Below are positions 29,401-64,000 of a DNA stretch of 64,000 nt, piece by piece (the first letter of the stretch is position 1; every line of letters begins with the position of its first letter). The notes under the pieces were generated by a model. It was not told the origin of the DNA and searched no databases. It saw nothing but the letters and a program-made list of their open reading frames with translations. Made by a program: the position numbers and the translations under genes. Source of the stretch: Blasia pusilla (lineage: Eukaryota); contig CM114271.1 in NCBI GenBank assembly GCA_050084515.1, forward strand, positions 15,686,001-15,750,000, read 5' to 3'.

Positions 29401-32400
29401 AGTATTTTGCACCTCCGTGAGATGCTACTTTCATCGGTCCACACACATCAGAGTGGATGAGCTCAAGCTTTTCTCCTACTCTAGTTTTGGACTTCTTAGG
29501 TATAGAAGTTCTACTCTGTTTCCCTTCTATACAACCTTCACAAAAGAATTCTGAACTATCAGGTTGTAAATGGAATCCAACAACCATCTTCTGGATGCTA
29601 CTTTCATCGGTCCACACACATCAGAGTGGATGAGCTCAAGCTTTTCTCCTACTCTAGTTTTGGACTTCTTAGGTATAGAAGTTCTACTCTGTTTCCCTTC
29701 TATACAACCTTCACAAAAGAATTCTGAACTATCAGGTTGTAAATGGAATCCAACAACCATCTTCTGGAGTTTCCTCATATTCTGAATTCCCAGATGTGCT
29801 AGTCGCCTATGCCAAATGTCTAAAGAATTTTTGTTCAGATCCAATGTTGGCTGATTCTTCATCAACATGTGTTGTATGAAGTTTATAAAGCTGATTGTTC
29901 ACAATCAAAGCTTTTCCGATTTCAGTTGTATCATGATCAAAAATAATGCAATGATCATCTGTAAACAACACTTTGAAACCCTCACTTGCTGAGACTTTCA
30001 CAGAGATCAGATTTTTTCCTATCTCAGGAATATAAAGGACATTTTTGAGAAGTAATTCTCTACAACCTTTCAGATTTAGATGAACTTCACCTTTGGAAGA
30101 AGTTTCCAAAAGTGCTCTGGTAAGCCTCTTGCTCTTATAGGATAGCCCCTGGCTATCTTAAACCCTAAAAGTCTTTAACTAAGGCTAAAGGAGGCTATTA
30201 TGAAACCCTAAAGGTTTTTAACTAAGACTGAAAAAGCTATTGCGAAAACCTATAGGTAATAAACCTAAAAATAGAATTTTACCTATAGATAGAAAAAGCA
30301 ACTTTTCATAGTAAAAAACAGATTTTTTTGCTCCTGATCTTACAGTTGCAATTTCAACAGTTTATATACCAAGCCTATTGATTTACTGTAAGAGACATGC
30401 TCCTTACAGGAAATACTGAACGTGAAGTCCTGACTTCCGGAGACTAAGCAGTGGATCATGGTGGTTCCCAACTATCACAACTCTTGTATGAGAGCTGCAT
30501 CTCCCATTCTCTGATTAGACACGTCATTCACATCACAGGATTGCTGCATTTTCTAACCGTGGCACTGCGATCCTCCCCCCACAATGTACCAACCACCAGC
30601 AGACCTAGATCCATCTAGTTAAGAGTGAGGTGCTCCCATAATGCATCCTAGGGAAACCTCTTGGTCTCTTCCTACAACCTACGGATGGCTGAGAGTAGTT
30701 TCTTTACCAGTTACCTGGTCTTTAACAAAATGATGATTTGCTCCGGCATGTTTCATCCTATCATGACACCTATTAGCACTCTGATTATCACATTAAATTA
30801 CAGATATTCTTGAGCAAAACTGAGATCTCTCTGCAGCTTCCTCAACCACACAGCTTCAGCTGCTGCCTTTGAAATTGCAACATACTCAACGTCAGTACTG
30901 TGTTATTTTGAATTCCAGCTGATTCAGCTTTAGGGAGTTTGATTCCAAATTTCCTGGAATCGAACGCCATAAAGTTCAGTGAATCTCCTGGAATCAAAGT
31001 CTCCAGCCCAGTTCATTGACATTGATTGTAAACCTGCTAATGCTCGCATGGAAGCTGGACAGGCGTCTACTTCAGATAAATGCCCAGAGTTTTGAGAAGA
31101 CAAAGCAGATAGTGCTTCAAGTGTCATATCAGCATAATGTGGGCTATTTGCACTTGCCCTGACCCGGCTTTTGCAGTAAGCAGTACAGGTCGTTTTATGC
31201 CCAATCCAGGGAGGATTCGTTGGAAAGCAGAGAAGAGAGTGATGAGATACCCAAAAAGACTGCTGAAATTGGAATAAGTACAAGATTCCTGAGATGTATC
31301 TCCTTTGACTCAAGTTAATCTATCCCTCTCTGTTTCTCGAAATTTGCATGCCAAGCCACTGGGTAATTTCACCCAGATCTGACATTTGGAATTCTTAACT
31401 GAGTAGATGCTTTACTATGTAATGTGACTCTTTCTGATTGCTATTTAGGATAGTATCATCCACGTAGAAAGCTAGCATAACAAATGTGCTTCATTATCCA
31501 CAAAGATGAAAATTCTGGTCTTCATCAGTAGCCTCAAACCGCAAAGTTTGAGTGAGATATGAGACAATCTTTTGAGAGCATTGTCTGAAATCTTGTTTTG
31601 AGGCCATACAAAGCCTTGTTGAAGGTACAGACTTTTCCAATGATTTCACCACCTTCAAGCCCTTATGGAAGTTCTAAAAAACTCCCGTAAGAAAATTTTT
31701 TTAACGTCCATTCGCTCTACCTCCAGGTCAAATTGGCTGGGAAGAGTCGGAATGGTTTTGAGGCAAGCTATTCTCATCACAGGTGAGAAGGTGTCTAGAT
31801 AATCAATGCTGAAAATAGTATCCCTTGTCTACTTGTCTGGCTTTGTATCTTGCAATTCATCCAACAGAGTTATCCTTGGTCAAAAAAAGCCATTTATATT
31901 TGACAGCATTCTTTCCTTCTGGTTATTTTGTCGCTGTTCATGTTTCATTCTTCTTAGGAGAAGCGAGTTCAGCTTGGAAAGCTTCCACTAAATGTTCTGC
32001 GCCAGGTGTGCTCGAAGCTCCTGATAGTGAGAGTCATTCCCCCTTGAGAGGAAAATATAGCTGTATGTTTGGTGCTATCGGTGTTCCTGATACTTGCTCT
32101 TGGATCAGGAAAATCGAAGATAAGGGGTTTTTGATGAGACATCAACTATTCTTCTACCTTTCTTATGATAGGTTTCAGAGGTTTGGTCTACTGTGGTAGA
32201 CTCACAGTCTCAGTTCCTCCCACTCTGCTATCGCTGACTCCAGCAGAAATTTGAGGGACTAATTTCACTTGGACAATTACTCCAGGTTGAACCTGATGTT
32301 GACGAATCATCACAGGCTGAACTACAAGTTCTGGAATATGGAGGGAGATTGGAACCAGAGAAGCTGGAATATTTAGCGGAAATAATCCCCTTTTTATGAT

Positions 32401-35509: not shown

Positions 35510-38500
35510 CATAAAATAAACCTCAAAAGAAGACAAAAAAAGGTAATAACATCTCAAAAGAAAAGTAAAAAAATGCTTAAAAGAATGTAAAAAAAAAATG
35601 GCAACAAGTCAACGCTAACACCGACTCAACAAGTTACACGATTGATAGTTTGAAACAAATATGACAAGAACACGAGTGGTTGGTCAGACGTGAATGGACG
35701 ATGAGGCGAGCGATCCCCCACCACCTCCGCACAACGTATCAATGCCAAGCTTGTGCACGTTGTAAGGCCACTGAGATGCATTTCCAAAAATAAGTAGTAA
35801 CTACCGAGAGAGAAGGACCACGGGAAGGGGTAAGGTGATGATTCTCGAGGGAGTGGTGAGCACATGTTTTCAGGAAAGTATCAAAAGACACATGTAAATG
35901 ACCGAATACTTCCACTGCGAAAGGAATAAATCCATCAGTCGCATGTCTCACAACATAACTTAACTCCTTGATTCTTGCGGCAGCTTCGGTTGCAAAACCT
36001 TTGGTATGTGTGGCTCGACACACCAAGTCAGAACGTGTTGGATCAGCAACCACCACATCACCAAGTGTCTGGAATCCACCTCGAGACATAACAAGATCCA
36101 CTCTCCGGCTACAGGTTGCTTGTGTGGTTGAAGGTAGGACATGGAGTTGCTCTTGCCCAACGGTGTATCTTGCAGTACGAGCCACCGATGCTATCGCCTC
36201 TTTGATGACATCATGTGTGGCCGTTCGTTCTCCACCATGTGCACATCGGAGAATATGGATACCCTTGGCATCAATGGGATCCCCGCATACACAATTCGGC
36301 ACACCGAATAGAGAAGGATGGGGAAGTCCAAGACGTAACCGCAAAGCTGTCGAGAATATACTTTGAGGAAGACAAAATGGAAGAATAAGAGGATTTGCTG
36401 TAAGCCACGCCCCCGCTCCTATACCCGCACATGAACGCAAACGAGCTCGATGAGCGTCACAGGATGCCTCGGAGAGAATGCTGGAAAAGTTTATTTGATG
36501 CAGATTCTCGAAGATATGCTCTTGAAGTCGATCAAGCCCTTCTGTAATCAGTTGACTCAAAGGGGGTAGAATTGCTTGTGTAGCAAGAGGAAGAAGAGCT
36601 CGTGGAGATCTCAGTTGTTATTGAAATAACAAGTCCCTCTCCTCTACATGGGCGATATGATCCATCAAGATAGGTGTATCTCCTTGGAGAAACCTTGAAG
36701 CCATAATCGGTGCTACCAATGCCCAACTCCCCAAAAAGGCTGTGGGAGCAGATGCGACTGTGGAGGACAGTCCCACCCCTCCAAAAGAAATAGGCAAGAT
36801 AGCTTGTTGTGAAGCAAAGACACCATCCTCTCCGTCAAAGGTATTCGGGCCAAGAAGTTGACCAAAAGTTGCCAAGATAGAAAAGTCAAAAGAGGCCAAC
36901 CGATGTAAGAACCTTGTAGTGGGAGAACAAGAGCGAAGAAGGTAGGAAGGACGTCGTAGAAAAAATTGGGAGAGAATCGTATAAGCCACTTGGGGATCCC
37001 CTAGATGAGGTAACAAATGAAGCCATTCCACGTCTTTCAAAAGGGCCTAATCCAAGAACTTTGAGACATAGTCGATGAAGCCAATTGGGACCCCAAGAAC
37101 TCTAACCCCTTCAATATAGATGGGAAAATCATGAGTAGGTGGGATGAATGTTGAGGGAAGGCATGAAGGAGACCATATTCCACATTTACTAGGTTGGACT
37201 TTAAGGTTTAAGAAAGAAAGCTGCTCCACGAAATGGGTATAAGCAAGAACCACTTGCGAAGGAGGACCTATAATGTGAGTGTCATCAGCAATAGAAGGGA
37301 AAAGACGAGATGGAAACGCTTGCGCTGATGCTCGAAGGGCACAAAAATGGGCAATGGCAAAGAGTGGGCCACCCATGGGATCTCCTTGACATGTGCCACA
37401 AGCCGATTGTAGAATATTATATTCCCCGGAAGTAGCAGGATGGGAATAGATAATGGGCATATCATAGATATAGAAGGAGTGAACAAATGGAATGAGGCTC
37501 GCAAGTTGTCCATCTGCATAACGTAACTCCTCAAAGATGGCCGCACGAGAAACTGAATTGAATGCATTAGCCACATCGACTTGAATTGCTACCCAATCTG
37601 GATGAATATCAAGAGTGGAGCAAATCCCATGCACTACAACCTCACAACCTCTAGGAGTTGCCACTCCAAATTGATGAGGAAATAAGTGGGGACACTAAAG
37701 TGAGGACAAAATTGCAGGCATAGGGGTCGACTAATCAATCGGTATAAAACCTCTCCAATAGCCAAAGGGCGCACACCTGAAGGAGGCTTATCCATAGCCA
37801 AAAGATGACAAGCCCCTGAGAGCCTAGAGATAGAGAATGGGAGAAGACTTGCCACCATATGTGCACACACCTTATATAGAGAGACAAAGCCACTTGCTGA
37901 ATCTACTGGGATAAAGCAATCGCAGAGATGCTTAAAAACCATTCCTGATAGCCCGCTTGCTGATAGGCGAGGAGTATGAAGAAAAACCCTCGTGAAAACC
38001 TCCAAGTCAAGTTCCAAGTCAAGGTCCGTTATATAGTCTTCCACAAAAGGTGGAGCATCGCCACTTGAAGGATGATGAAGAGCTTCTAAGAGGACTTGGA
38101 AACGTGAAAACTCACCAACCTACCCCAAAAGTAGACTTGGGGTAAGGCATTGTTGTATTGAAGGCCTCCCATGATTGGCATGTTGAGTGGGATTAGCTGC
38201 AGCTAAGGCCTCTGCTCGAGGTACATGCTCATTCTGAAGATTCTCCCAATCCCCAGACATAAAGCGTTGAATATATGTGGAGGTTTCACTATGACTCGTC
38301 GTACCACTCCTTGGAGGGAGGACTAAAACCCATTGTGGGAAGAGTAATAGGAGATACCAAGCATTGATATCTGTGGGGTCAAGTGCTAACCTTTCTAATG
38401 GGAAAAGCAAAGCTTGCTAGGTGATGGGGCGAAGAACACGCTAGAATGGTCGCAATGCCCTGCACCTAGTGATCTTGCTTGTGTCAGACCAACATGGGTC

Positions 38501-38943: not shown

Positions 38944-39241
38944 TAATCGCGCTTAACTGACAAACCAAGATTAAGCTTCCCTACTTCGTATGAATACCAA
39001 ATATAGCACTTCAGGTGCCTCATGAGCTTGACTGTAACTCAATCTTCAATAGCAACAAGGGAGACTCAAGAAATGAAGTAGAAGGTCAAGGCTTCATCAC
39101 CTTCTACTTCATTTCTTGAGTCTCCCTTGTTGCTATTGAAGATTGAGTTACAGTCAAGCTCATGAGACACCTGAACTGTTATATTTGGTACTCACACGAA
39201 GTAGGGAAGCTTAATCTTGGTTAGTCAATTAAGCGCGATTA
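38944..39241. repeat. Long inverted repeat (143-bp arms, 12-nt loop) spanning the Copia 5' junction
   Basis: Arms 38944-39086 and 39099-39241. Inner ~68 bp perfect; 7 mismatches counted in the outer part. Confidence 0.95.
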
Positions 39242-42200
39242 TCTTAACTAGGGTTAGTTAATCATAATTAGTCTAACTCTAGACTAAGGTTAGGGTTAGG
39301 GTTGCTTGTACATATCCTATATAATTGAGAAGGGGACCACCTCCATTCATTATTTCATCGAAAATTTTGTTCTCCATAGTGGTGTGTGTGTGCGAGAGCC
39401 GTTTTCCACATAGTATCAGAGTTATAGGAGAAAATCATTTGAAATTGTTGGTGTTTCAGGAGAGAAGAGAGGCAAGAGAAGGCACAAGTTCAATTGGGGA
39501 TAAGGAAGTTTTATTCAGAGCTGAGTGGATGAAGATTTTAGGTGGAGCTTTGATGGTGATAAAACTTTGGAGGCGTTTTTAAAGGCATTCCCGATCGACT
39601 TAGCCATTTGGGTCCGCAGCAGCTAGAACACTGCCAAAGAAAAGTTCTAGCCATCTTATAGAGCTTGTCAAGAGATTTCCAATGCACCCAAAATCGTTCA
39701 ATTCTGACATTCTGAGCTCCTACAATAGCAATTTCGGTGTAGGAAAGTGCAATTAGTGAAGAAAAGTTGGGCCGTTTGCTTATAGGCCAATTTCGACTAG
39801 TTTTTCATACAGTTGATCAATGTTGGAAAATTTCAGATTGATTCATGTGTAGGAGTGGTCTATGTTTCAATTGGAGGAGTAGAAAGTCTGAAATTATATT
39901 TTTGTGAGTGAAATCGTTCGTCATAGAATATTCCTCAACAACAATCACAAACAAGAAGCTAGATAAGTTGAATTATAATGTCTAGAAGTTTCGCATGAAA
40001 CAATTTCTCATGGGTCAAGAACTATGGGAGCTTCTCACAGGTGATGAGGCCAAGCCACAAGGTGACTCAATAGACTTGAGTGTTCGCGCTTGGAACAAAC
40101 GCGCAAGGCAAGTAATCCATTACATTTCAATAACGATCAGTTCGCCAATGATCGATCACATTCAAGATGTTGATACTCCAAAGCCTTGGAATGCATTGGA
40201 AAATCGATCATTCACACATCTACAAAGGCCAGAAAGCTTCAATTGAAACATCAATTGAACGAAGTGAGGAAAGGATTGTAGAGCATCAATGATTATATTT
40301 TGAGTGTGAGATATATTGTTGATGAGTTGAATAGCATTGGAGTGACAGTAGAAGATGATGATCTAATTTTGTTCACTCTTCAAGGCCTTCCAAAGGATTA
40401 CAAGTCCTTTCAGACCTCTATCTCTATGAGAGAGAAATATCCAACCTTTCAAGAGTTAATTCCTCTATTAATCACTGAAGAGATGAGCCTAGTAGGCAGC
40501 GATAGCTCATCTAGTCTGCAAGAGAGTGCTCTATTTGCAGATTATGGATCAAACAGAGGCAAGGGTTATGGTAGAAACTTCCGTGGTCGTGGTGGATATC
40601 AAGCATATGGAGGAAGAGGCACTCAATATAACGTCGCACAATCAACTACGAACTAGTATCACACACAATCATAAGGTGGTAATGGTGGAAATTGTTGGGA
40701 TGGAGGTCAGTAGCATAGGGTCCTTGGATCTTGCAATTACTATGAGATAAAGGATCACTATGCAAAGTTTTGCTTCAAGAAGAAGGTAGATATGAGAACA
40801 AGAACCTTACAACAACAAAACTATGTGGAGCAACAATACCAAGAGTAGTACCAAGAACAACCACATTCACAATCAGAGCATCTCTTGGTCATGACTCATC
40901 ATATGGGAGCAATGGTCAAGAAAAACTTGACATCAGATTGATACATTGACTCTGGTGCATCAAATCACATGACCTCACAAGCTAAATGGTTCAATAGTTT
41001 GGAACCGGTGAAAGATCCTACGATTGTGCTCATAGGAGATGACACTCAATATCATATCCCGCATATTGGTAAAGTTCCAATAGTATCAGATGGTCTTTGT
41101 GCTCTTGGAAATGTTCTCTATGTTCCTACCATTGAAAGAAATCTGATCTCTGTAGGACAGATAGTAGAATAGGGTTATCAAGTGAAGTTTAACGGAGATG
41201 GTTATTTCATTGAAACAATGGATGACCAAACTACGATAGCCACAGGAACTAGATCTGGCAGAATATTCAAATTAGATGTTTCTATGTGAGAGATTCAAAC
41301 AGTAATGTGTGATCAAAGTGGCCAACAAGTCACAGATCTAAATGTGTGGCATAAAAGAATTGGACATAAGAATCTTCAAGGATTACAGAGTTTTTCATCA
41401 TCTAATATAGTAATAGGACTCTCTAAATGAGTGAGTCCTGCTACGTTAGAGGTATGTCCTGCTTGCCAATTTGGAAAACAAGGTAGATTTCCTTTACCAA
41501 AGCAAGGTAGAAGAGCATCCAAGATATTGGAGTTGATCTACAGTGATGTGTGGACAACATCACAACATAGCCTTAGTGATTTCCAGTATTTTGTTTCATT
41601 TATTGATGACTTCTCTAGGTATATATGGGTATACTTTCTGAAAGCCAAGTCAGAGGTATTCTCAACGTTCCAAATATTCAGAGTTCTAGTAGAGAAGTAG
41701 ACGGGAGAACATCTTCTGAAATTGCGTTGTGATGGAGGAGGAGAGTATCTTTCAACAAAGTTTGATGACTATTAACGTCAGAATGGCATTCAACGTTAAG
41801 TGACTTACCATTAGATTCCACAACAAAATAGAGTGGTTGAGAGGAAGAATTGACATATTGCTGAAGGGGCACGAGCTATGCTGAATGAGAAGAACATGCC
41901 TAAGGTCTATTGGGCAGAGGCTGTAGCATGTGCAGTCTTCTTAATCAACTAAACTCCAACAATAGAAGTTCATGATAAAACTCCATTCGAAGTCTTTACA
42001 AGAAGTAAACCTGATTTTTCCTTCTAGAAAGTATTTGGCTGTATTTGTTATGTTCATGTTCTTCTTGAGAGACGTCTGAAATTAGATCCTAAATTTGACA
42101 GATGTATCTTCATTGGCTATGGTGATGGAACTAAGGGATATAAGTGCTACATTCCATCCTTTAGGCAGCTTATTATTAGTCGAGATATTGTCTTTGATGA

Positions 42201-44367
42201 GCTTAAGTCATGATATGCTCCATTGGAGCCTATACCACCTCTAAACTCGTCTGTTGAGGGGGAGAATATGACTGTAAACCAATAGACATTGTCTTCAACT
42301 TTCCCAAGTACTAGTTCAGGATTAGGAGAAGTCCTAGATTCATCAATTAAATCTGTGAGTTCATGGATGGGAAGAGTACGTATTCATTATATTGACACTA
42401 GTCAGAGCTCGAGTCAAGTGTCGGAGGCATCTACCTTTGAACAACAACTTCGTAGATCAAGTAGAGTTACACATGCAGTTCAAAGATTCATAAATGAAGG
42501 CTTCCTTGCAACACATCATGCATATATGATGACTACCCTTTAAGAACAGGAGCCGAGTTGTTTTGAAGAAGCTGCAAGGAAAGTCGAATGGATTGAAGCT
42601 ATGGAGGAAGAGCTTGCTATATTAAGACATCAACAGACATGAGAGTTGGTTGATATACCTTCCGATAAGGAAGCTATTGGCTGCAAATGGGTTTACAAAA
42701 TCAAGCGTAATCAAGATCGTACAATTAACAGAGACAAAGCGAGATTGGTGGCTAAGGGCTATGCACAACAATATGGTATCGATTATGAGGAAATATTTAG
42801 CCCTGTTGCAAAGATGACGATTACGAGTACAGTGGTTGTAGTTGCAGTAAGTAAAAAGTGAAGATTATATGACATGGACGTCAAGAATGCCTTCTTGAAT
42901 GGAGATCTATACGAGCAGATATTTATGACTCAACCACTTGGATACAAGCATCCCAAGTTTCCATTTCGCGTATGCAGATTGAAGAAAGCTCTCTATTGGC
43001 TCAAACAAGCTCCAAGAGCTTGGTATGGTAAGATTACATACCTCCTACAAGAGTTAGGTTTTAGGGTATGTGATTCTGACTCCTTGTTATATGTCTTGAG
43101 AGGACAAGATCATACAGTTCTCATTATGTTGTATGTTGATGATCTCCTGATTATTGGGAATACTGAAGAACTGGTACAACAAGTCAAGCTTAAGTTACAA
43201 GCAAAATTTGATATGAAGGACTTGGGAGAACTCAAGTATTTCCTTGGTATTGAGTTTATCAAGGTTGGAGAGAGTATATGGTTACTACAACAACAATATG
43301 CTCTTCATATGCTTTCAAAATATGGTATGACGGCTTGTAAGCCAATCTCTACACCGTTGGACCAAAGTGTGAAGCTAAGAGTGGATGAAGGAGAGTTGCT
43401 TGCAGATTCTAATATGTACACGCGAATGGTTGGAAGTTTGATATATCTAACTGTAACTAGACCAGATTTGGGTTATGGTGTTGGCCTAGTGAGCCAGTTT
43501 ATGCAAGCATCTCGAAAACCTCACCTTGATTTTATGAGAAGGATTATGCGGTATGTGAAATTCTCTATTGAATTCGGGCTTCAATTTGAATTTTCTCCAA
43601 GTTTTTAATTACATGGATTCATAGATGCTGATTCATGGAAGGGTGTCAGATCAACACTCCACATCTGGTTATTCATTTACTTAGGGAAGCGCAACTATAA
43701 GTTGGGCTTCAAAGAAGCAACCTGCAGTTGCTTTATCTTCAATAGAGGGTGAGTACAGAGGAGCAACCAATGTAGCATGTGAGGCGGTGTGGCTTCATCG
43801 ATTACTTGTTGAGATTCGTGTTAGTAACTTAGGACCTAGTGTAATATATGCAGAAAATATTAGTAGCATCAAGCTTCATAATAATCCTATGTTTCATGCT
43901 CATATAAAGCATGTTGAGGTGCACTATCATTTTATCAAAAAAAAGTACTTGCAGGAGAAATAGATCTTCTGGATATAGGTACAGATCAGAAAATTGTTGA
44001 CATCTTTACAAAGGCATTGTTGAGAGATAAATTTGAGATGTTTAGAAATGATTAAGGCGTTAGAGATATCGATACGAGTTTGAGGAGGAGTATTGAAGAT
44101 TGAGTTACAATCAAGCTCATGAGACACTGAACTGCTATATTTGGTACTCACACGAAGTAGGGAAGCTTAATCTTGGTTAGTCAATTAAGCGTGATTATCT
44201 TAACTAGGGTTAGTAAATCATAATTAGTCTAACTCGAGACTAAGGTTAGGGTTAGGGTTGCTTGTACATATCCTATATAATTGAGAAGGGGACCAGCCTC
44301 CACTCATTCTCTCATTATAAATTTTGTTCTCCATGGTGGTGTGTGTGTGAGAGAGCCGTTTTCCACA
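39134..44367 (+). mobile_element. Full-length degenerate Ty1/Copia element
   Basis: 277-bp LTRs at 39134-39410 and 44091-44367. PBS TAGTATCAGAG (tRNA-iMet type) and PPT GAGGAGGAG. gag, PR (IDSGASNHM), INT, RT (YVDDL) and RH are present with many stops. Confidence 0.95.
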
Positions 44368-50259: not shown

Positions 50260-53200
50260 GTGCGCGGGAATCATGCACGACTAAAGCAAGCCAATGCTAG
50301 GACACTAGTGGAGAAGTCAACCTGCAAGGCTTGGGTAGATATAGATATTTTATTAGCTCGATGGCAGAAAGAGTGCTCCGTGTTCACTAATAAAATGACA
50401 TGTTGTGGCTATTGTGGGTTCGTGTCTTATTGCTCTCAACATTCGTCGATGGCGCTTGTAACATGAGACATATATCCTCCTTATGTACTATGCAATGGGT
50501 ATATGCTTAGGAATATTATTCCAAACCCTAGGTCATTCTATGTTTGCTGTGGCTATGCCAAAAATGGCAGAAATACTGCTACCAATGTCTACATGACTCC
50601 AGCGTATATCCGAGACGTATCGGAAGTCAATCCGCTACACCTTCAGCTCCTCGCTCTTATTGATTGTAGGATAGGTATAGAGGCTAAGTACAACGGTTTT
50701 GAAAAGGGTTTCTTTCAGGTTGACTCCCTAATTGATTGTCCTCTGGTTTCATGGAATATATGGAGTGTAGCTCTTATAAATCCTGAATTCACATTCAGAC
50801 AAGTGAGGAAGGTCCTACTAGTTAATCTCCTGGTAAACGAATTGTATCTACAATACATGCCATTGATTGAACTACCTGACCCAAAATGTGGGCTAGTAAT
50901 CCTACCATCCTCGTATGTTGATGTATTCTAAAGGCATTGCCAGAAAAGGGCCAGCTTACGCATAGCATGGCGGAAAATCCATACAGTGCTGAACTTAATT
51001 GTTCTGCAAGATGTGCATTACTCATTGCTAGTCAAGAAACGTAAATCATATGATATTTTCCACAATGGTATTGTATTTTTTAGAGACGCCGCTCAAACTA
51101 GAGATTTGTTTCTAAGTGACCAAAATGGGATTCCGGTTGACACAAAGCTGACTATTGAGACATGTATTTTTCCTTTTCTGTTTCCTTATATGAGGGGATA
51201 TTTTGGGGTCACTCATCCTTTATCGATTATATGTGCGACAGAACTAGACACTTATTTAGTGTTTTTACACTTTATAAGCCATATCTGCTTGTCATGCACC
51301 AGTTGCGACAATCTATAGCTCTTACATCTTCAAATCAAACATGCATTCTTAACAAGGAACTTGAGCCGTTAAAAAGTAGGAATCATGACCTTAGTGACGA
51401 GGACATCTACTCTCAATTTTCAAAGTATAGCTGCAGTGCTCAGATACCAAGCAACCCGTCCTGGCACCGACGACACTTAAGAGACCTAAAGGCCATGGTA
51501 GCCAAATGGGGGATGCCCGATTTGTATCTAAGTCTCACCTCACATGAGGTATCGAAAAATCAATGGCAAGAAGTATGTGATATTGAACAAGTGATTCAAA
51601 GACTAAACCCAAAATTTTCATGGAGGGATGCCCCAATTGAATGCGCGGTCCTATTTCATACAAGATTGAAAACATTTTTCAACAACTATATACTAGGAGG
51701 CCCACAGATTCTTAGGGATGTCAACAACTACTTAATCCGGTATTAATTGCAGGGTAGAGGTAGTCTTCACTCACACATAATTTTTTGGATCAATAAACAA
51801 GACCTCGATCAGGTAACTTCTGAAATATGTTGCTACATTCCTTAGGTTGGCACCTTTGTACCCCTTACTAACTCTCGTAGTAGTTGTGTTGATAAGCTTC
51901 ACCATTATGTCACTACCAAGCATATACACACATGCAAAAAGGGAGTTTGCACCATTAAGGAAATGAGTTCACACCCACCCTACTGCCAAATGGGATTCCC
52001 TCTACCTTCGAGCTTCTCTTTAGAAGCATCCATAGATGGCAGGATGTTGAAATGGGTCTATTGTCGACCTGGGGAGTGTCATCGCAATGTTATACCGTAC
52101 CATCCAGCTATCCTCTTATTGTGGGGGCTATACATGAATTTACAAAGAGTCACTAATGTCCAATGGTCCTTCTATTTGCTTAAGTACGCCCTAAAGTGCG
52201 AATCACAAGATGCGCTCAATATCACCACAGAGTGTGCTTACTGCCTCGGATTGGAAGGCCTTGATGAAGTTAGACTGAAATTAATATCTGTCCTTGTACT
52301 AAATAGGTCTGTCTCCTCCACTTAAGATACATATTATCTTCAGATCACAATCTGTTTAGTATATTGACTCCAACCCTCCATCCAAAAGGACTCACCTATA
52401 TAAAAATGCCACAGTCCTTTGTATACACCCAACTATTACATATTCACACCGACCAGATTGTCTATCTTCACTAACTTTTTTCCAGTTTTGGTCTTCATAT
52501 GAGATTCGTTAAGCCCACCCTAAGGATACCACATCATTTGTTGCAAGTGACTTGCTTAGGAACTTAGTTTATAAAACATATCGCCTAGTCCGGTTCACTG
52601 AATTTCATCCTCTTCACAACATTATTAGCTTCAGATCTAAGACAGAATTAGTCACTGTCTTGCCTCCACAGTGGTCGTATCTTCATGAATGCATATTTTG
52701 GAGGGCATTCTCAGATGAATGCTCCATTTTCGATGAGTTCAAAAGACATGCTATCTCCAATATGTGGAGTGAAATGCATGTTTGAGAGATTATTTCTAAG
52801 GTTATTGATCTATTGCGCCCTCATCTGCATTTTGATATTTCTCCTTAGTTACATATTCATGCTCAACTTAACAATCACATCGATACTTCACACTCCTTAC
52901 CTGCACCTACTGCCATATCCACTAGTTTACTCAATGTTGAGCAGCTGAATCTATTTCATGAGATAAAGGACCTTATATCTGGCCTTGTAATGTTGTCTGG
53001 CCCACCTGGGTGTGGCAAAACCTTCTTCATACACTTCATGCAACAATATTGGACATCCGTTTCTGTCTCTCCATTGTTGACCGCAACAACAGGGATTGCT
53101 GTTGTATGACTCCACACCATTGCTATTACAGTCCACTCTGCATTTTCCATTCCAATAAAGGGAGACTTGCCGTCAATGCACACTGTTTCAGACCAGTATA

Positions 53201-55602: not shown

Positions 55603-56304
55603 ATGGCGAACAACGATGGATCTGCAAGGTGTGGAAGAAAGTCCATCGCATCAGCATCACCAATTCCAGCTGCAAAGAAGTTTGCATTGCCCGTGCAACT
55701 TCTCCATCATTCAACAATGTTTTTAAGCGATAGAAGTTCACTCGACCGACGGCATTTTCTGCATGCACCTGAGGACATACAAGCTTGAAATGAAGAACCA
55801 GACCACCAAGCTACTTAAGTTTGCGCTAAATGCTATTTGCTTTTACATCTCGTACAGTGTGTTTCCAGCTGCTAACTATGTTATTCTCAGGTACCAAAGT
55901 CTTACGTAGACTTTTCCAAGATGATATTAAATGATATGCCCAAGCTACCTTACGATAGCCATCCTCAGATAATACCTCCGACTGATGCACAGTTGAAATA
56001 TGCTAACAACCTAGGATTAGATCAGTCTCACTATGGTGGCGAAATTTCCAACCGACAAATGAGCCAACTTATTGATCAGAGGAAGTCTTGAGCAGCGTCA
56101 TTCAGGGAGCTCAAAAAATAGCTACGAGCAACAGGTACTATTCATTTGCACTACTCTATTTATGCGTATTATGTGAAGTAGTTTTTTGGCTCTTATGTTG
56201 ATTACTCCTATTTGGTTTTTGTCCATATGTACTCAGGTATACAGAAAGAAGCGATGGTGCATAAAGGAATCCATTTCAATGAGTTGGAACTAACACGGCA
56301 ACTC
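55603..56304 (+). pseudogene. Decayed spliced ORF of unknown function downstream of the Helitron helicase
   Basis: Exon-like 55891-56134 and 56237-56304 joined by a phase-1 GT-AG intron. In-frame stops. Truncated by the LTR at 56305. Confidence 0.35.
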
Positions 56305-56900
56305 TCGTGCGGATACACATCGCTACACAACATACATCGCTGTCACCAAACACGCACGATCCCATGCTAACTTATGGCATCCAAACAATGAGATAAAAAT
56401 GTACCAAAATATCTCTAATAAAATAAGATCCAATCTCTCTCACAACACTATAGTTCTCACATGTCTCTCTCAACGTCAAACCAAACCCACTCTCCTAATG
56501 AGAGGCTTGGGTTACACACACAAGGCAAACAAGACCATAGCTCCGCCGTCTCTTGCCAAGAAGTTCAACAAAGAGAGAATGAGCTCTCAAGCTCTCTCTC
56601 CTTGAGATATACCCCTCCCCTCTCCCAATCTCTCTCCATGGTAACCTTTGCTCCCAAGTCACCTCCTTGGCTCTTGACCCGATGTAGGAGGTCAAGGGCC
56701 ACTTACCAAAAATAGAAAGTTGATCATATACTCAAAATGATACTTACCTAAAATAGTAAGTTCCTCAATATGGCTCTAAATGAGTTGAAACGAAAGGGAA
56801 ACCCTGCTCTCTCAAGTTTCCCAGGGCCTCAACAGGTCATCCTCAACCTACTCTCAGCCTGTCCTCACTACTAATGAAGGTGCTCTACTAGATCTCACCG
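56305..56900 (-). mobile_element. LTR of the DNMT-Gypsy family (longer copy, directly adjacent to the element)
   Basis: 56305-56415 matches 56927-57048; the sequence then continues with U3/R-like sequence. The right boundary is approximate. Confidence 0.65.
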
Positions 56901-57232
56901 ATCTATCCTAAAAGATGTGATAGTTGTCGTGTGCGTACACATTGCTACACAACATACATCACTGTCACTAAACACACACACAAACACGCAAGATCCCATG
57001 CTAACTCATGGCATCCAAAAAATGAGACAGGAAGTACCAAAATATCTCCAATCGCCCCCCTAGCTGGTGGTTACGTCCCTCTAACTCTAGATAGCCATCT
57101 ACCCCAAGTTACCATGACATACATCTCTCGGACGCTAAGATCAAGAAGGCCGGGTTCTCATGTGGCCCCATTGCTAGTCGCCTTCTTGTCATCCATGTCA
57201 CAGACACAAGTCAAAATGTAGAACTACCTACT

Positions 57233-57373
57233 TTATGTACATTTGGGACACATCCATCGTCCTGGAGGAACCCTAGTGAGAGGTGGCATCAAACATGCCA
57301 TATGCCATCCTCTCGAACATCCATCACATACTAGCATAGTGGTTGCACCATGGGCAGAACCACACAACATACA
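57233..57373 (-). other. PHD finger (C4HC3) at the C-terminus of the Gypsy integrase
   Basis: CMLCGSAHGATTMLVCDGCSRGWHMACLMPPLTRVPPGRWMCPKCT*; all eight Zn ligands present. Confidence 0.92.
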
Positions 57374-58016
57374 CTGTAAACCTACAAGAACTATTTCTAA
57401 GCTTCGGATCAAGTGTATCCATGATGATAGTAGGTCGATAACCACCTCAATGTTATCGATGTTGGGGAAGATGACATGGCATCAGGTCATTCAACACCTT
57501 CACATGGCCCTTCCAAACCATACAAGCGCGTCCTTCCAATAAGAGAACACGGGATGGCAAAACCTCACGTACTCTCAAGATGATACGCCCTATATTCACA
57601 TCCAATGTCATGGATGTCATCTATTATAAGAAGACATAGTCTCCATGATGATAGTAGGTCGATAACCACCTCCCCGAATAGTTGCATACCTCAACGTATC
57701 CCGATGTTGTGCAATCATCAAGTTCTCAAACGCCATGGGCATCACTCTAAACAAATCCCGAGAATCTCAAGAAGATCAAAGAGAACATGTTCACATCCAT
57801 ACATCTTTGGGTCATCAACTTTCAACACCTCACCAACATCTCGGTCCTCCTTGAATGGCCACTAGAAGCAATAGGTAAATCTGACTTTCGCCATAAAGCA
57901 ACAAGCATAATATAGTATTAGTTAGTTACGGTGAGAAAGACACTAAGGATGCAATGGATATGTGATGTAGAAGCTCTTAATTGTCAAGTGGAGAGGAGAG
58001 TGTGATCGCTCTTGAT

Positions 58017-58020
<4 letters not shown>

Positions 58021-58073
<53 letters not shown>
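58021..58073. repeat. (CT)n microsatellite interrupting the integrase
   Basis: About 26 CT units seen directly. Confidence 0.95.
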
Positions 58074-58076
<3 letters not shown>

Positions 58077-60869
58077 ATCCCATCGCCAACCATGGCAATT
58101 CTTTGAAGGTCCCAATATCCTAGGTGACCTCTTTGCAAGCCATACTTGCGTAGTCCTCTCTTCATTGTCTGCACAACTCGCTCCGCTAGTCCATCCGCCT
58201 CAGGATGATCTCACGAAGTAGTGCGGTGGTCGATCAATATCTGATCACTCAAGGCCAGAAACTCCCCTCGGAACTCTCTACCCTGGTATGTCAATACCTC
58301 AGCTGATGCGCCGTATTGACTCAACACTCGTTCTAGGAAGGCATACACTGCTCCCTCACTTGCTTTGTCAAGCAATGCAACCAACTCTATCCACTTTGAG
58401 AAGTACTCAACCATCACCAACACATATCGACTATGGCACTCCGTCAAAGGCAAAGGTCGTGCAAAATCCAAACTCCATCTATAACCTAAACCCATGATTG
58501 GAAGTGGATGCAACTCTGGAGTCAGAGCATTGAACAATGCTCAGACTCAATCACACACCATGCATCTGGCAACAAACTGCTACACGTCAGTCTGCATGCC
58601 TTGCCACCAATACTGAATTTGGAGCAAGTTGTACGTCCGCTTCACTCCAAAATGACCCAACTCCTCGTGGGCATGATGCACCAAATGTGCTCTCTGCAAA
58701 GGATGAGGCACTACATGCACTCTACCATCCTCCCACACTGGCAATACATGTGTGCCCTTCCACCGGAACTGTCTGGCTCGTTGTAGGATCCAATCCCGCT
58801 CTCTAGCATCCATTGTGCTTGCGACGGTGCCAATGCACAGGTACTCCAAGACCACTCCATCGTCGTGAATGTCTCGGCCACCTGTCGTCTCCTCGCCGGC
58901 CTCTGGATCTAAGGACTCTCCATCAGACCTCGCCATGCATCGAACTCTCAGCAATCTGGCCCTCAATAGCCAACAAGCCCAAATAGACTAATACATGCCA
59001 TCCTGGCACCAACTCCTCATCACTCTCACCATGCCAACGAGCTTCAGGCGTATCTCGCTGACTCGAGCATGGGTTACGGCTCAAACCATCTGCATCTTGG
59101 TTGAGCGTCCCAGGTCTATGCACCACCTGCAAGTCATACTCCGGCAACAAAAGAGTCCACCTCGCAAGCTTCTCTGTAAGCTTGTCGGACTCCATAAACC
59201 AGTTAAGTGGTTGATGATCACTAATGATGGTAAAGGGATTGCCAAATAGATAACATCTAAAATGTGCGACAACCCACACTACAGCCAAGCACTCATCCTC
59301 ATATGAGCTATACTTTGCCTCTGCAATGTTGTTCGAGCAACTTGCGTAAGCCACCACGAACTCTCTACCATCATTGTCATGCTGGGTGAGCAGGGCTCCA
59401 AGCCCCAACCTGCTCCAATTGATATGCAATTGGAAAAGACGCCCCCTGATCGGTCTCCTCAATATGGGCGCGGACGTCAATATGTCCTTGAGTATCTGAA
59501 ATGCTCTCTCTTGCTCATCACCCCAGTGCCACTCTGATCCACCTTGGTCATCAAGGTTAGGGGCTTCGCAATTGAACTAAAACCCTTGACGTATTGTTGA
59601 TAGAAGTTCGCCAATCCCATGAATGCACGAACTCGACTCACATGTGTAGGGCGTGGAATATGTGAAATAGCCTCTACCTTTGTCTATTGCACACCAAGGC
59701 CCTCTAGGTATATCGTATGAGCCAAGTACTCAATCTGGCCATAGAAGAACTTGCACTTGCCCGGATGTAGCTTCAGCCCATGTAACTGCAATCGTCGAAA
59801 TACCTCCTCTAGATGTCGCTCATGCTTCTCAACCGTGGCGCTAAAGACTACAATGTCATTAATATAACACCTAGCAAAATCCAGACTTGCCAAGATCCTA
59901 TCCATGACCCTGTGAAACTTAGTTGGGGCGTTCTGGTCTGTAGGACCCTGACTCCTCCCAGTAATCTAGGGAAAACCCCATCGGATATAACCCCGATTGG
60001 CAAGAACCGCCACTGGTACAAACAATCCTTCCCTTGAAGATCGATGCCCCAAAATGCCATCTTCTGCCTGTCCTCCAATCTGATAGGCAAATGATGGTAT
60101 CGGGCCCGCAAATCCAATGAACTGAAGACCTTTGCATGCCCAATCACATCAAAGATCTCCTCAGGGGTGGGCATGGCATACCTATCGGACTGCGTCTACC
60201 AATTGATAGGTCGGTAATCTCCACACATCCTCCTATCCGTCTAGTTGCAATGCACATCCTTCTTGGCGGGCATAACAATGGCAGATGCATACTCTCCAGG
60301 TGACATCTCCACTAGTCTTGCTCCAACCAAGTCCTGGCTCCTACTCTAAATCAAAGCCCTCTCCATGTCACTATACCTATAGGATCGTCGGAAGATCGAC
60401 GTGTCACTCGACAACTCAATACGGATCCTTGGACCCTTCTGCGTATCCAAATCATGCATACTAAATGCAAAATAGCTCCTATAACTCCTAAGGAACTGGT
60501 GTATCCCGCGCCGCTCTCCTCTTGTCAACTTAGGGCCCATATCTGGCTCCCAAGTCTCCATCGTGACTACGATAAGACTCTCCGGTGCGGGTGTCGGTGG
60601 TTGCTATGGTGCAACCCCATCTCGGACAATAGAACTCTCATCTCCACGTGTAGTACTCGAAACCACACTCAATGATGTGGCTATCATCTCTTGGCGTACC
60701 TGAAAAACATCCCAAGAAGTCCAAGGGTGTCTCTTCAGATCACCCTTGATGTGTCGATCTCCTCGGGTCTCACCCCTAGCCGTAGCCGCAATCGCCTCGG
60801 TAGGCATAGGGCTCACCAACGCAATAGCTGTGATCTATGCATCCTCAAACGATCGCTGCTCAACTACTC

Positions 60870-61825
60870 TTAAGCTGAAAATCCATGTCAAGTAGTTTAG
60901 GTCCATCGCTTGACCCAAGACATAACGTCGTCATGCCTCTAATAGTGACGATACTGCCGTCACTCCTGTGGGAAATCCCATTGCTCACTCTCGCTCATTA
61001 AAGTTGGGCTCCACCAACCTCTGTACTTGGTCATCCCAAACCAAGCCAGGTGCGGCCTCCTTGAATGCATAGGAAGCATGAATACTCACCAATGTGAGAA
61101 AGGCTTCCTGTGGCGTGCCAATCCTGTTGACCACAATCAAGGGCGATTGATCATCTAACCTCACTGCCTGTGATCGACGGCCCAGATCCAATATAGAATC
61201 CACTAACAAATCGTAGGGGCACTCCACTCTCGCATATGCCCTCCGTAACACCTTGTGTGGTACCAAGTTGGTCCACCAAAGACGCGGGCAATGTGCTCGT
61301 GAACCCACACTCACCGCATCTAAGAACACTGCGGGGCCGATCCATGCGCGCACCTGATGTGCACTCGTCACCACGTGGGACCTCGAATCGCCCAAAATTG
61401 GCACATTCTCCAAAATGTATGTTGAAGAACGAGGCTGATGCTCTTGTAAATATCGCAAGATCCGCATCATCTCCCAAAACAACATGGACCGAGTGTCAGC
61501 TAACCCACTACCCCGTCCAACACTTGATTGGCGCTGATATGACCACCCAACAATGACCAAGTCTATGGTCCCTACCCGCTCCAAGTCTTGCGCCCCCAAC
61601 AATGAAATGTCCCTCGGTAGGAAACTTTGGTAACCCTGAATGGCAAACGCAGACAACAAGTCGGGGAAATGGAGGCATAACAACGCCACATGGTGAAGTG
61701 AAGCGCGCCTTGCAACATCATCAATCTCCACATATAGGTACTACTGCACGTGCACTCCAACATGTAAAACAGCAGCTAACCCAGTGTTGATCTCTCCAAA
61801 GAGATCCAACACCCAAATACCCTTC
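60870..61825 (-). pseudogene. Retrotransposon-encoded C5 cytosine DNA methyltransferase domain (DNMT3-like), decayed
   Basis: One reading frame with stops. Motif I VLDLFGEI, II YVEID, III RDI, IV IDLVIVGWSYQ (from GWPCQ), LFWE, VI YILENV, VIII AHCPRLWWTNL, IX ERE*AMGFPTG.T, X VLGQAMDLN. Confidence 0.9.
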
Positions 61826-64000
61826 TCTCGGATGCACCACACAATCGGGGTGGTGTCCAAAGGGGTCATAGAAGCACTCCTACGTACTTGGGGTTCCTCT
61901 TACCTTTCACACTCTGGTGCAAACGTCTTGTTCCACGCGGTTTGCAGATGTTTAGTGGCTAAGCGTCGGAGCTCCTCAGTCGAGCCCCAAAGCGGCACCT
62001 CTCCTCCACGCACTGATGCGGCTACTATGACACTCCTCTGCATAGAAATGTCAGGAACGGGAGTATCCTAAGCATAGACTATGCCAAGGACCTCCTGTCG
62101 GGTGATATATCTCAATCAAATCACTAGGCCAAGTGATGGCACTGCTAAATGCTGCTAAGGTCAGCATCTCTCCTAGCCTTTGCTCGATCACTCCACCAGT
62201 GAATCGAACGGGTAATGAGCTAAGGCGCCCATCAAGACTCTACATCAGTCACTATTGCCTTGGCTCGCACTACGGACTCATCTGTAGGATGTCCCGGGCG
62301 AATCCTTGCCACGACCTCCTGTCGGGTGATATACTATGTGGTACTTGCTCCACCCAAGATGTCTATATCCGGAATGGACAATGCTCCATATCGGCTCTCG
62401 ACAAGCCCAATCCTCTGAATGACGCTTTCCCCAACATCAAGGGTTTTGCTCCTGAATCCAACAAGATGCGATGCGGACTAAAAGCTCTACCTCCGGGACT
62501 CACCAACTAGAAGACCTCTCCCTGGTTATCCAGCAACACAACACTAGGAGAAACCATGGCACGCCCTATCGCGGGTCCAGCCATCCTAGCAACCTAGCGT
62601 TGCCATGAATCTGACGTGGATGGCCCGAGCATCCGCTCCAAGGGCAGGTCCATCACCTCCTCTGCAATCACCTCTGAACGTGATGCAGGAACTCCAACTC
62701 CACGCTCACATAGCATAGCGGCCAACCGAAAAACCTCGGCGGGTGTACCTCCCAACGTCATAACATTGGAAGCAAAAAATAAAGAAGTGCGATACACAAC
62801 GGTGGCCACGCCAACAACATCCTCGACACATGCCCCTCGTAAGCACCAACAATAGAAGTCGTCACACTCGCTTCTCCCATCGCCCTCCGCGCCTGCACAC
62901 CAACAACATCACAAACTCTACAGGAACTCTCATCAAGACCCATCGATGGGGTCCTCATCGCTTCGGACAACGTGAAAGACTGAGGAAGCCTAGTCTATTT
63001 CTTGGCTTCCCCTCACTGTGGATCCAACTTTGCGGCTGCTCCACGCGTCACAATTGCGGCGGCCTCCATCTAGGCAACTCCGCATATCCAACCAGGATCC
63101 TCCATATCTCTGGCTGCTCCATATGATGTTGATGCCACGGATCCGGCATCGGGTAACCTCAATGCCATAGCGGCAATCTGCTCCAGTAGTTGCTGTATCT
63201 GAGCAGCCATCCCAGCCTCATGTTTGGCGTCTCCCTCGATGCGTCTAGGTGGTGGGACTCTACCTCCTCCATGGGAAGCTCCACCACTCTGTCGGGCAAC
63301 TCCAGCTCCTCGTCCCCCAACGAGACCACCTGGTGCACGATCTCTAGCCCACCCCGACCGGCTACTCGCTCTGGTGCCATCTTTGGCCCTCGGTCCGGAC
63401 GTAGCTCAGGGTGTAAGCTGAAACACCTGAGACGTGTATGACCATACCTCTAACAATAGTCAAATTGATAACCTCCTGTTCCAGCACTATCTCCTCCTTC
63501 ATGTTGAGGCACACGTCCATGACCTTGATGAATGCAATCGCGCTCATGATGGGCTCCACCACATGACCAACAAGTAATCGTAGGCAGCTGCTGTTGAGCC
63601 GCATATGAAGGTGCAAGTCTCTGTGGCATGGCCTCGTGGTATGCTCCTTGAGCTTCAGGTGCCACAGTCGACCTATCTTGGAGTCCACGTTGCTACATTG
63701 GTGATGCAGAAAATCGTGATTGCTCTCGCCCAGAACCCATGGTGGCTTCACTCTCCTCCGCCATGTTCCGCTCAATGTTCTCGGCGGTCCTTAAAACATC
63801 TCTCAACATAGAGGTGTTCATAAGGAGCACCCCCTCCCGCACCCGTGTCCGCAGGGTCCGATCCAGCATCGCGTACCATGACTGGATAGCCTGAGCCACT
63901 ATCACCCCCTGAGTGACATTGATCAACCGCCGCAAGCCAGTGTAAGCCTTATGCAAACTCTCACCCGGGCGCCTGTGGAAGTCGTGGATGCTCCGCAACT

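Follow-up and report, generated by a model that had tools for sequence, protein, structure and literature searches.

A PHD finger ends the integrase of a decayed Ty3/gypsy-type element with a DNMT3-like domain in Blasia pusilla

We analyzed a window of 64,000 nucleotides from Blasia pusilla (assembly GCA_050084515.1, contig CM114271.1, positions 15,686,001 to 15,750,000 of the forward strand), numbered here from its first letter. Its minus strand carries a Ty3/gypsy-type retroelement in the order gag, protease (PR), DNMT3-like cytosine methyltransferase, reverse transcriptase (RT), RNase H, integrase (IN) and PHD finger, which extends beyond the window end at 64000. An initial annotation, made from the letters alone, had proposed that the PHD finger replaces a chromodomain at the integrase C-terminus and that finger and methyltransferase together form a self-contained epigenetic module. 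Our results showed that a complete C4HC3 PHD finger is encoded at 57239-57373, that an equivalent finger ends the integrase of the relatives, and that the copy in the window is dead. The features of the element are listed below from its gag end to its 3' end; P numbers denote related proteins and L numbers related metagenome loci.

63362..64000, minus strand: gag region with a CCHC-like knuckle at 63534-63572 (from open reading frames, ORFs); the 5' end of the element and its repeat A1 lie outside the window
62357..62818, minus strand: aspartic protease region (LLDSGA), 41% identical to the PR region of the Marchantia protein P0019
60871..61830, minus strand: DNMT3-like C5 cytosine methyltransferase domain, 3 stops (PF00145, E 3.7e-5)
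59534..60576, minus strand: reverse transcriptase, split by a foreign 59-bp piece at 59933-59991 (PF00078, E 4.7e-14)
58962..59576, minus strand: RNase H (PF17917, E 6.4e-31)
58583..58696, minus strand: integrase HHCC zinc-binding domain, with three in-frame stops directly downstream (PF17921, E 2.9e-11)
58103..58540, minus strand: integrase catalytic core (rve), with an in-frame stop at 58211-58213 (PF00665, E 7.2e-8)
58021..58073, no strand assigned: (CT)n microsatellite within the integrase coding region; about 40 codons of the relatives are unmatched here
57465..57805, minus strand: integrase C-terminal region in two frames, 5 in-frame stops (tblastn, window by window against P0008)
57374..57481, minus strand: decayed linker in the PHD frame, with an ectopic 34-bp duplication (57415-57448 is a copy of 57639-57672)
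57239..57373, minus strand: PHD finger (C4HC3), last domain of pol (PF00628; KDM5B PHD1 match; structural model and Foldseek)
57233..57235, minus strand: stop codon of pol, one residue past the last Cys-x2-Cys (1-10 residues after the PHD in relatives)
57055..57060, minus strand: six-G run, part of AGCTAGGGGGGCG (57053-57065), end of the internal region, putative polypurine tract
56927..57052, minus strand: terminal repeat B1, 126 bp, 80% identical to 56305-56419
56420..56926, minus strand: terminal repeat A2, about 500 bp (by analogy with related loci; read depth indicates repeated DNA)
56305..56419, minus strand: terminal repeat B2, with the 3' end of the element near 56305 (self-match to B1; read edge)

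The finger lies in an ORF of 82 residues plus stop (57233-57481, minus strand), whose C-terminal end reads CMLCGSAHGATTMLVCDGCSRGWHMACLMPPLTRVPPGRWMCPKC-T-stop; the ORF tail that carries the finger and the stop reads, in its longer form, ...GLQCMLCGSAHGATTMLVCDGCSRGWHMACLMPPLTRVPPGRWMCPKCT-stop. A search with PF00628, which the initial annotation had suggested, matched residues 37-81 over the whole profile (1-47 of 47) at an E-value (E) of 4.4e-12 and 46.3 bits, above the curated cut-off of 24 bits. All eight zinc ligands are present, spaced C-x2-C-x11-C-x2-C-x4-H-x2-C-x14-C-x2-C. The annotated intact C4HC3 finger at the end of pol is thus borne out, and the motif given for it is correct apart from the gap between the fourth Cys and the His, which is four residues and not three. 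The six-G run begins 173 bp past the pol stop on the element strand, in agreement with the distance of about 170 bp to the polypurine tract that had been estimated, and a G-run abuts repeat B1 at the identical boundary in all seven related loci examined.

Between 57374 and 57600 we found decayed linker and integrase C-terminal region, in frames other than that of the PHD. The linker before the finger aligns to CHLPNIDG...AGL.C of the relatives. The integrase C-terminal region at 57465-57805, which we take to be GPY/F-like, matches their ...RGGGYRP...GDYVYLQ...ILRVREVLPSRVLLLEG...CHLP. Further upstream, reads of other copies jump over 57953-58106, the region of the microsatellite. ORF scans of the window copy gave no Pfam match for either the protease region or the gag region.

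The position of the finger was then compared across relatives. With the RNase H piece as query, 54 proteins were found, and the C-termini of the 28 closest and of P0041 were examined. The closest named proteins come from the liverworts Riccia sorocarpa, Calypogeia fissa and Marchantia polymorpha (60-73% identity). Twelve proteins continue beyond the integrase C-terminal region, and each of them closes with a PHD in frame, followed by a stop within 1-10 residues, with the eight zinc ligands invariant in 12 of 12, while the remaining 17 end upstream of that region. From metagenome contigs we obtained 533 relatives and kept the best 80 loci, ranked by likeness to a DNMT+PHD protein. A locus was counted as informative for the PHD if it had at least 260 bp beyond the preceding domain, as 54 did; tblastn found the PHD in 52 of these, and L044 and L054 hold decayed remnants recognized by eye, which makes 54 of 54. 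A single open frame runs from the integrase core through the PHD in six loci, most other copies being decayed. The initial annotation had stated that a PHD out of frame with the integrase, or absent from other copies, would speak against it; the finger proved to be in frame in each of the 12 proteins and to occur in each of the 54 loci.

A tree of RT, RNase H and IN (35 rows, 994 columns, PHD columns left out, quick search) placed the 14 PHD-bearing proteins in one clade with a support of 100 in the Shimodaira-Hasegawa-like approximate likelihood-ratio test (SH-aLRT). The sister of this clade, formed by P0032 (a named Closterium protein) and P0035, has neither a PHD nor a chromodomain. No chromodomain (PF00385) was found in 15 ORFs of the window or in 11 proteins of the PHD clade (14 proteins scanned), and the only two chromodomain rows on the tree are long branches outside the PHD clade. 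The proposal that the PHD replaces a chromodomain therefore holds for the position, which is the same; a replacement is not supported, since no chromodomain was found in the window or in the PHD-clade proteins scanned and the sister has neither domain.

The window copy itself is a pseudogene, unable to make any protein. When the intact relative P0008 was placed along the window in 30-residue steps, the path from RNase H to the PHD ran through frames 0,1,2,1,0,1 (five changes) with at least nine in-frame stops over about 770 codons. Motif IV of the DNMT reads GWSYQR in the window against GWPCQG, so that the catalytic Cys is lost (in an alignment with X at stops), and B1 and B2 are only 80% alike. 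We also counted the differences between 56000-64000 and one whole-genome shotgun (WGS) run that carries the species label of the window's best DNA match. Of 665 places in total, 170 show A in the window and G in the reads, and 201 show T and C, respectively; the reverse was seen at 49 and 51. This asymmetry (371 versus 100) is consistent with C-to-T decay by deamination of methylated cytosines. The window copy is old and dead and was probably methylated and deaminated, and the finger in it is a relic.

This state of decay raises the question of whether the finger is foreign to the element (a captured exon, a fragment of a neighbouring gene or a chance arrangement of Cys and His) or was domesticated in the window copy. 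It is the sole long stop-free stretch in a decayed region, and its frame differs from that of the sequence just upstream. Such an origin is nevertheless extremely improbable: the PF00628 match has an E of 4.4e-12, the linker aligns to that of the relatives, and the finger has neither a start codon of its own nor an upstream open frame. As for domestication, with stops this dense a run of 82 open codons is to be expected by chance, and the intactness of the finger is thus no sign of selection here. The equivalent finger in place in the 12 in-frame proteins and the 54 loci effectively refutes a foreign PHD.

We observed one further rearrangement in this copy. In other copies, the 59-bp piece found here in the RT (59933-59991) lies near 62235. 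Hundreds of reads link 62234 with 59933 and 59991 with 62236, the shorter side measuring 59, and most copies have 10 letters at the RT site where the window has the piece. The displaced piece is the scar of a small internal transposition or of a gene conversion. A DNMT-less variant, suggested by joints that skip 2244 letters or go back 2302, was rejected because the shorter side is exactly 59 letters in each.

The ends of the element are split direct repeats of the DIRS/PAT type and not plain long terminal repeats (LTRs), despite its DDE integrase. The B1-A2-B2 layout is common to L068, L021, L035 and L070, in which A2 matches the 5' repeat A1 at 77-92% (the repeats of L068 lie at 4861-5149 and 14303-14952). 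Below 56267 the DNA read depth drops from hundreds to nearly zero, and 942 loose read ends lie at 56305, which places the 3' end of the element near 56305.

No second copy of the element was found elsewhere in the 64-kb window. The family is nevertheless alive and still transcribed in the host species. In a WGS sample of about 1% of the run named above, counting reads at least 90% alike, 42,601 reads fell on 56000-64000, 39,579 of them only 90-95% alike. Per direction, the element was covered at a depth of 65-1400 and the unique flank at 0.43, from which the diverged copies number roughly in the hundreds to thousands. From three RNA runs of that species label we obtained 1807, 2187 and 1721 reads, with the first mate nearly always on the plus strand and the PHD end covered. 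Assuming the usual stranded libraries, these one-sided reads are consistent with sense (minus-strand) transcripts, and since they are mostly 90-95% alike they come from other copies. Over the DNMT bins (60806-62140), DNA read depth was 65-112 against 200-600 elsewhere, 3-6 times below PR, RT and IN; this may reflect either many copies that lack the DNMT or greater divergence there.

To which class does the finger belong? The best solved sequence match was KDM5B PHD1 (E 2.6e-14), and further matches in the PDB were KDM5A PHD1, CHD4, PHF12, Lid, KAT6A, ATXR5, DPF3, BAZ2B, PHF21A/BHC80, AIRE and UHRF1. An AlphaFold2 (AF2) model built from 22 family sequences reached a predicted local distance difference test score (pLDDT) of 80.2. 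Foldseek returned 61 PDB matches at E<=1e-3, and every match listed is a PHD finger or a PHD-carrying protein, mostly in complex with H3. The closest structures are those of DPF3b, ATXR5-H3, BAZ2A/B, MOZ, UHRF1, KDM5B and BHC80, with a template-modelling score (TM) of 0.78 to the DPF3b and ATXR5 PHDs (TMq up to 0.80), and superposition of the model on solved fingers gave a root-mean-square deviation of 0.6-1.3 A. The titles of several of the top structures name a complex with unmodified H3 or with the H3 tail. No reader of the cage type appeared among the best 60 of 87 sequence matches or among the structural matches listed.

Individual positions point the same way. Cage-type H3K4me3 readers carry a Trp at position His-2; the window finger has Gly there, as do 37 of 37 fingers of type A and 38 of 43 of type B (the two domain orders described below). 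In solved complexes, H3 A1/R2 are held by the P-x-G-x-W loop together with the Asp that follows the third Cys. The Asp is present in 35 of 37 type A and 40 of 43 type B fingers, and the loop is kept in the family together with an aromatic residue at His-1. Without a cage Trp, and with this Asp and the loop kept, the finger belongs to the type that holds the N-terminus of unmodified H3. By resemblance, both of sequence and of predicted fold, the finger is of the class that binds the unmodified H3 tail.

We next considered the DNMT. The best solved match of the window piece is DNMT3C, and that of the intact relative P0029 finds DNMT3B, 3C and 3A (E ~1e-6), with a common motif ...AHR.R.[FW]W.NL. 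The claim that the element encodes a methylation writer thus stands insofar as a DNMT3-like domain lies in the same pol, but this copy is dead and has lost the catalytic Cys. In the metagenome loci with enough upstream sequence, the DNMT lies upstream of the RT in 50 of 52. Among the 30 loci informative for both domains, both are present in 27, two have only PHD remnants and one has a PHD without a nearby DNMT, counts that are tilted upward by the ranking of the loci on likeness to a DNMT+PHD protein.

For a sample with less bias, 1.84 billion representatives were searched with a profile of the DNMT alone, which yielded 14,491 proteins at E<=1e-3, with 399 at E<=1e-30. The best 150 matches are exclusively DNMTs of the transposable element (TE) type. 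Fifty of them reach the integrase C-terminal region, and a PHD follows directly in 45. The other five comprise three that end within 60 residues, and P0126 and P0166, which have long PHD-less tails. The co-occurrence of PHD and DNMT, put forward as a check on the initial annotation, is therefore observed in both samples (27 of 30 loci; 45 of 50 proteins). In P0126, residues 1013-1035 give a weak Tudor-like match (PF21743, E 1.7e-4, below the cut-off), which, judged from this sequence match, may reflect a swap of one reader domain for another.

Two domain orders were found among the 85 classifiable proteins of the best 150. Type A, to which the window belongs, is DNMT-RT-RNase H-IN-PHD (7 of 85), whereas type B is RT-RNase H-DNMT-IN-PHD, usually with a tail of 100-500 residues (78 of 85; for example P0056-P0058, P0060 and P0102). 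Of the named members, the 'pol' of Scenedesmus sp. PABB004 belongs to type B and a Closterium sp. NIES-65 protein to type A. In an unrooted DNMT tree of 91 rows, one branch parts 9 type A from 82 type B sequences (SH-aLRT 99), and the RT-RNase H-IN backbone tree agrees with this split. The co-occurrence and the tree splits indicate that the PHD-DNMT pair is old, that it extends across green algae and bryophytes, and that the DNMT probably changed place once. A self-contained module in the physical sense is not supported, the reader being on the integrase and the writer between PR and RT.

Taken together, our preferred reading, to which we give a probability of roughly 0.6, is that this is a genuine PHD finger that ends a Ty3/gypsy integrase, binds the unmodified H3 tail, tethers the integrase-cDNA complex and biases its landing sites. 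In working relatives the finger is translated in frame after the integrase C-terminal domain and most likely binds the unmodified N-terminal H3 tail. The integrase-cDNA complex would thereby be held to nucleosomes and its insertion biased, paralleling the chromodomains of chromoviruses, and insertion would be steered away from chromatin with H3 tails modified at R2, T3 or K4. The DNMT would be a second chromatin-acting module of the element, separately placed. We infer the histone binding, its specificity and the effect on integration.

Several observations weigh against this reading, the main one concerning the K4 pocket. In K4me0 readers, acidic residues near the first Cys or in the C2-C3 segment contact the free K4 amine. 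An acid stands at -3/-4 before the first Cys in 31 of 43 type B and 11 of 37 type A fingers, and just after the first Cys in 24 of 43 and 0 of 37, respectively; conversely, a basic residue at -1 is seen in 2 of 43 and 28 of 37, and the net charge of the C2-C3 segment is -1.65 in type B and +0.6 in type A. The window finger has no acid at the positions before and after the first Cys, where it has VGLQ (Gln at -1) and Met, respectively, and its C2-C3 segment has net charge 0. Judged by these acids, the window's lineage departs from the K4me0 readers. Because the acidic positions are neutral or basic in this lineage, an H3K4me0 specificity is doubtful for it, and the assignment amounts to a resemblance. 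What survives of the CHD4/AIRE/BHC80-type assignment in the initial annotation is the class, KDM5-type and not aromatic-cage; the H3K4me0 specificity attached to it is doubtful here.

The remaining points on this side concern dispensability, decay and sampling. The PHD is dispensable, as P0126 and P0166 carry a DNMT and have tails of more than 400 residues without a PHD. The window copy does not qualify as an autonomous element, open gag-pol frames and catalytic residues not being kept, and the locus counts are tilted upward, as mentioned above. In favour of the preferred reading, the ratio of nonsynonymous to synonymous substitution rates (dN/dS, by the method of Nei and Gojobori, NG86) over 45 finger codons had a median between subfamilies of 0.28 (from 113 usable pairs out of 171, with dS close to saturation) and of 0.61 within one decayed subfamily, figures that are tilted toward conservation since all 24 copies used have an intact C4HC3. 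On these codon comparisons, the finger is under purifying selection in the family.

The difference in charge that separates types A and B in the C2-C3 segment and next to the first Cys is in itself a possible change of histone-tail specificity. It bears on a different reading, in which the finger binds methylated H3K4, another histone or mark, or a host non-histone protein, and confers a different target preference or none. The reversal of charge at the presumed K4 pocket of type A argues for changed specificity. UHRF1-type fingers, described as insensitive to the K4 state, are among the matches, and a structure with an H3K4me3 peptide is listed. In addition, the portion available of one preprint reports PYGO-related retrotransposon PHDs in cnidarians, said to recognise H3K4me (bioRxiv 10.1101/2021.11.30.470311). 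We consider such a target quite unlikely, given the lack of cage-type readers among the best 60 of 87 sequence matches or the structures listed, the Gly at His-2 in 37 of 37 type A fingers, and the kept Asp and P-x-G-x-W loop.

Another possibility is that the PHD serves the DNMT rather than the integrase. The ADD domain of animal DNMT3 reads unmethylated H3K4, a state that is also read by fingers of this class. As part of an unprocessed polyprotein, or of a DNMT-IN-PHD product, the finger could guide or gate the methyltransferase on H3K4-unmethylated nucleosomes in an ADD-like manner. In the branch that is larger and more varied, the DNMT immediately precedes IN-PHD (78 of 85) and one mature protein could hold both, and the split of types A and B by one branch in each of two trees indicates that reader and writer travelled together. 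In the window's lineage, however, RT, RNase H and IN stand between DNMT and PHD, and PHD copies without a DNMT exist (L003, L046; the transcript P0016 begins at the RT). This role is plausible for type B and less so for type A, and we regard it as unlikely overall compared with a finger that serves the integrase.

Combining these elements, we tentatively propose as a possible history, to which we would not yet give even odds, that one green-lineage clade (Scenedesmus, Closterium, liverworts and metagenome contigs) kept the reader-writer pair throughout. The older DNMT-IN-PHD layout would have mimicked an ADD-methyltransferase. The branch of the window would then have moved the DNMT before the RT and turned the K4 pocket from acidic to basic, which may have uncoupled and retargeted the two.

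If this history is true, such elements choose their own chromatin and mark DNA themselves. Reader/writer retrotransposons show how genomic parasites negotiate with host silencing. The window itself is ordinary, one more decayed copy; the family, by contrast with its dead member, is large and transcribed in the host species, and its PHD-ended integrase and DNMT3-like pol offer a concrete handle. Chromatin maps and transformation exist for some bryophytes. With bryophyte hosts, it could be tested directly whether insertions prefer chromatin with or without H3K4, H3K9 or H3K27 marks and what the DNMT does, and the two DNMT positions and the charge switch of the finger constitute natural experiments on reader-writer cooperation.

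Other features of the window were recorded as well. A Ty1/copia element at 25643-30359 has 252-bp LTRs that are 100% identical (25643-25894 and 30108-30359), RVT_2 (E 2.9e-77), rve and long minus-strand open frames, and is probably a very recent insertion. A second Copia-type element (39171-44295, RVT_2 at 42862-43605) lies between 169-bp repeats that are 98% identical. We also detected a 143-bp inverted repeat at 38944-39241, an RT fragment (RVT_1) at 37050-37694, and a Helitron-like fragment at 50467-52325 on the plus strand (Helitron_like_N, E 7.5e-11 at 51159-51743). A 422-codon F-box and Kelch open frame at 15595-16860 (minus strand) is the sole evident host gene seen in the window.

Among known systems, one of the closest by description is KnitGypsy-Dnmt3 (de Mendoza et al., 2018; PMC5890265). 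According to the text available, DNMT3 in streptophyte Gypsy elements was published there and is repeated in PMC12344493 and bioRxiv 10.64898/2026.05.21.726589. Like the present element, KnitGypsy-Dnmt3 has a Gypsy-type pol with an embedded DNMT3-like domain, intron-less there, and the legend of its Figure 4 describes DIRS-like repeats with Gypsy-like domains, comparable with B1-A2-B2 in the window. It differs in that the closest relatives here are from liverworts and not from Klebsormidium, the two being likened by description and not by sequence. The word PHD has 0 occurrences in the main text of PMC5890265, whose figures or supplements may show one. More generally, no text was found in the literature on a PHD at the integrase end of Gypsy-DNMT3 elements, on bryophyte members or on two DNMT positions, though figures and supplements may show the PHD; PHD mentions are likewise 0 in Neumann 2019 and Novikova 2012 (PMC6317226, PMC3350952).

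The element also resembles chromoviruses, in which a small histone-reader domain follows the integrase C-terminal domain and tethering has been proposed. Chromodomain-directed integration has experimental backing there (MAGGY; Tf1 swaps; Gao et al., 2008, as cited in the parts available of PMC6673714 and bioRxiv 10.1101/2021.11.30.470311). In the window the reader is a PHD and not a chromodomain, and targeting would follow by analogy only. Retrotransposon PHD fingers are called widespread in the available text of PMC6673714, PMC8557442 and bioRxiv 10.1101/2021.11.30.470311. In the green lineage, the Ty3/gypsy elements REM1 (Perez-Alegre et al., 2005) and Gypsy-7a_cRei of Chlamydomonas carry a PHD in pol. 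In Gypsy-7a_cRei, however, the PHD stands before the integrase according to the figure legend in PMC9940879, and neither element is reported to carry a DNMT.

With the PHDs of KDM5A/KDM5B (PHD1), ATXR5, BAZ2A/B, DPF3b, BHC80 and AIRE (PHD1), the window finger shares LxCDxC...[WYF]H..CL.PPL..[VI]P.G.W.CP.C. It lacks the acids that KDM5B PHD1 and the type B relatives carry in the C2-C3 segment and next to the first Cys, and it differs from the solved H3 readers by its fusion to an integrase and not to a chromatin enzyme. Finally, EpiLTRs (bioRxiv 10.64898/2026.05.21.726589) and CopiaMBD (PMC6673714) likewise unite methylation writers and/or readers of chromatin or methyl-DNA in one element. As far as the available text of these sources goes, EpiLTRs combine DAM, a DNMT4-like DNMT and Chromo in Euglena and Collodictyon, with no PHD+DNMT3, and CopiaMBD has an MBD and no PHD+DNMT3 pair. 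With Gypsy-DNMT3, TE-borne PHDs and EpiLTRs already in print, the reader-plus-writer idea is not new in kind, and the family described here joins them with a PHD on the integrase and a DNMT3-like domain in the same pol.

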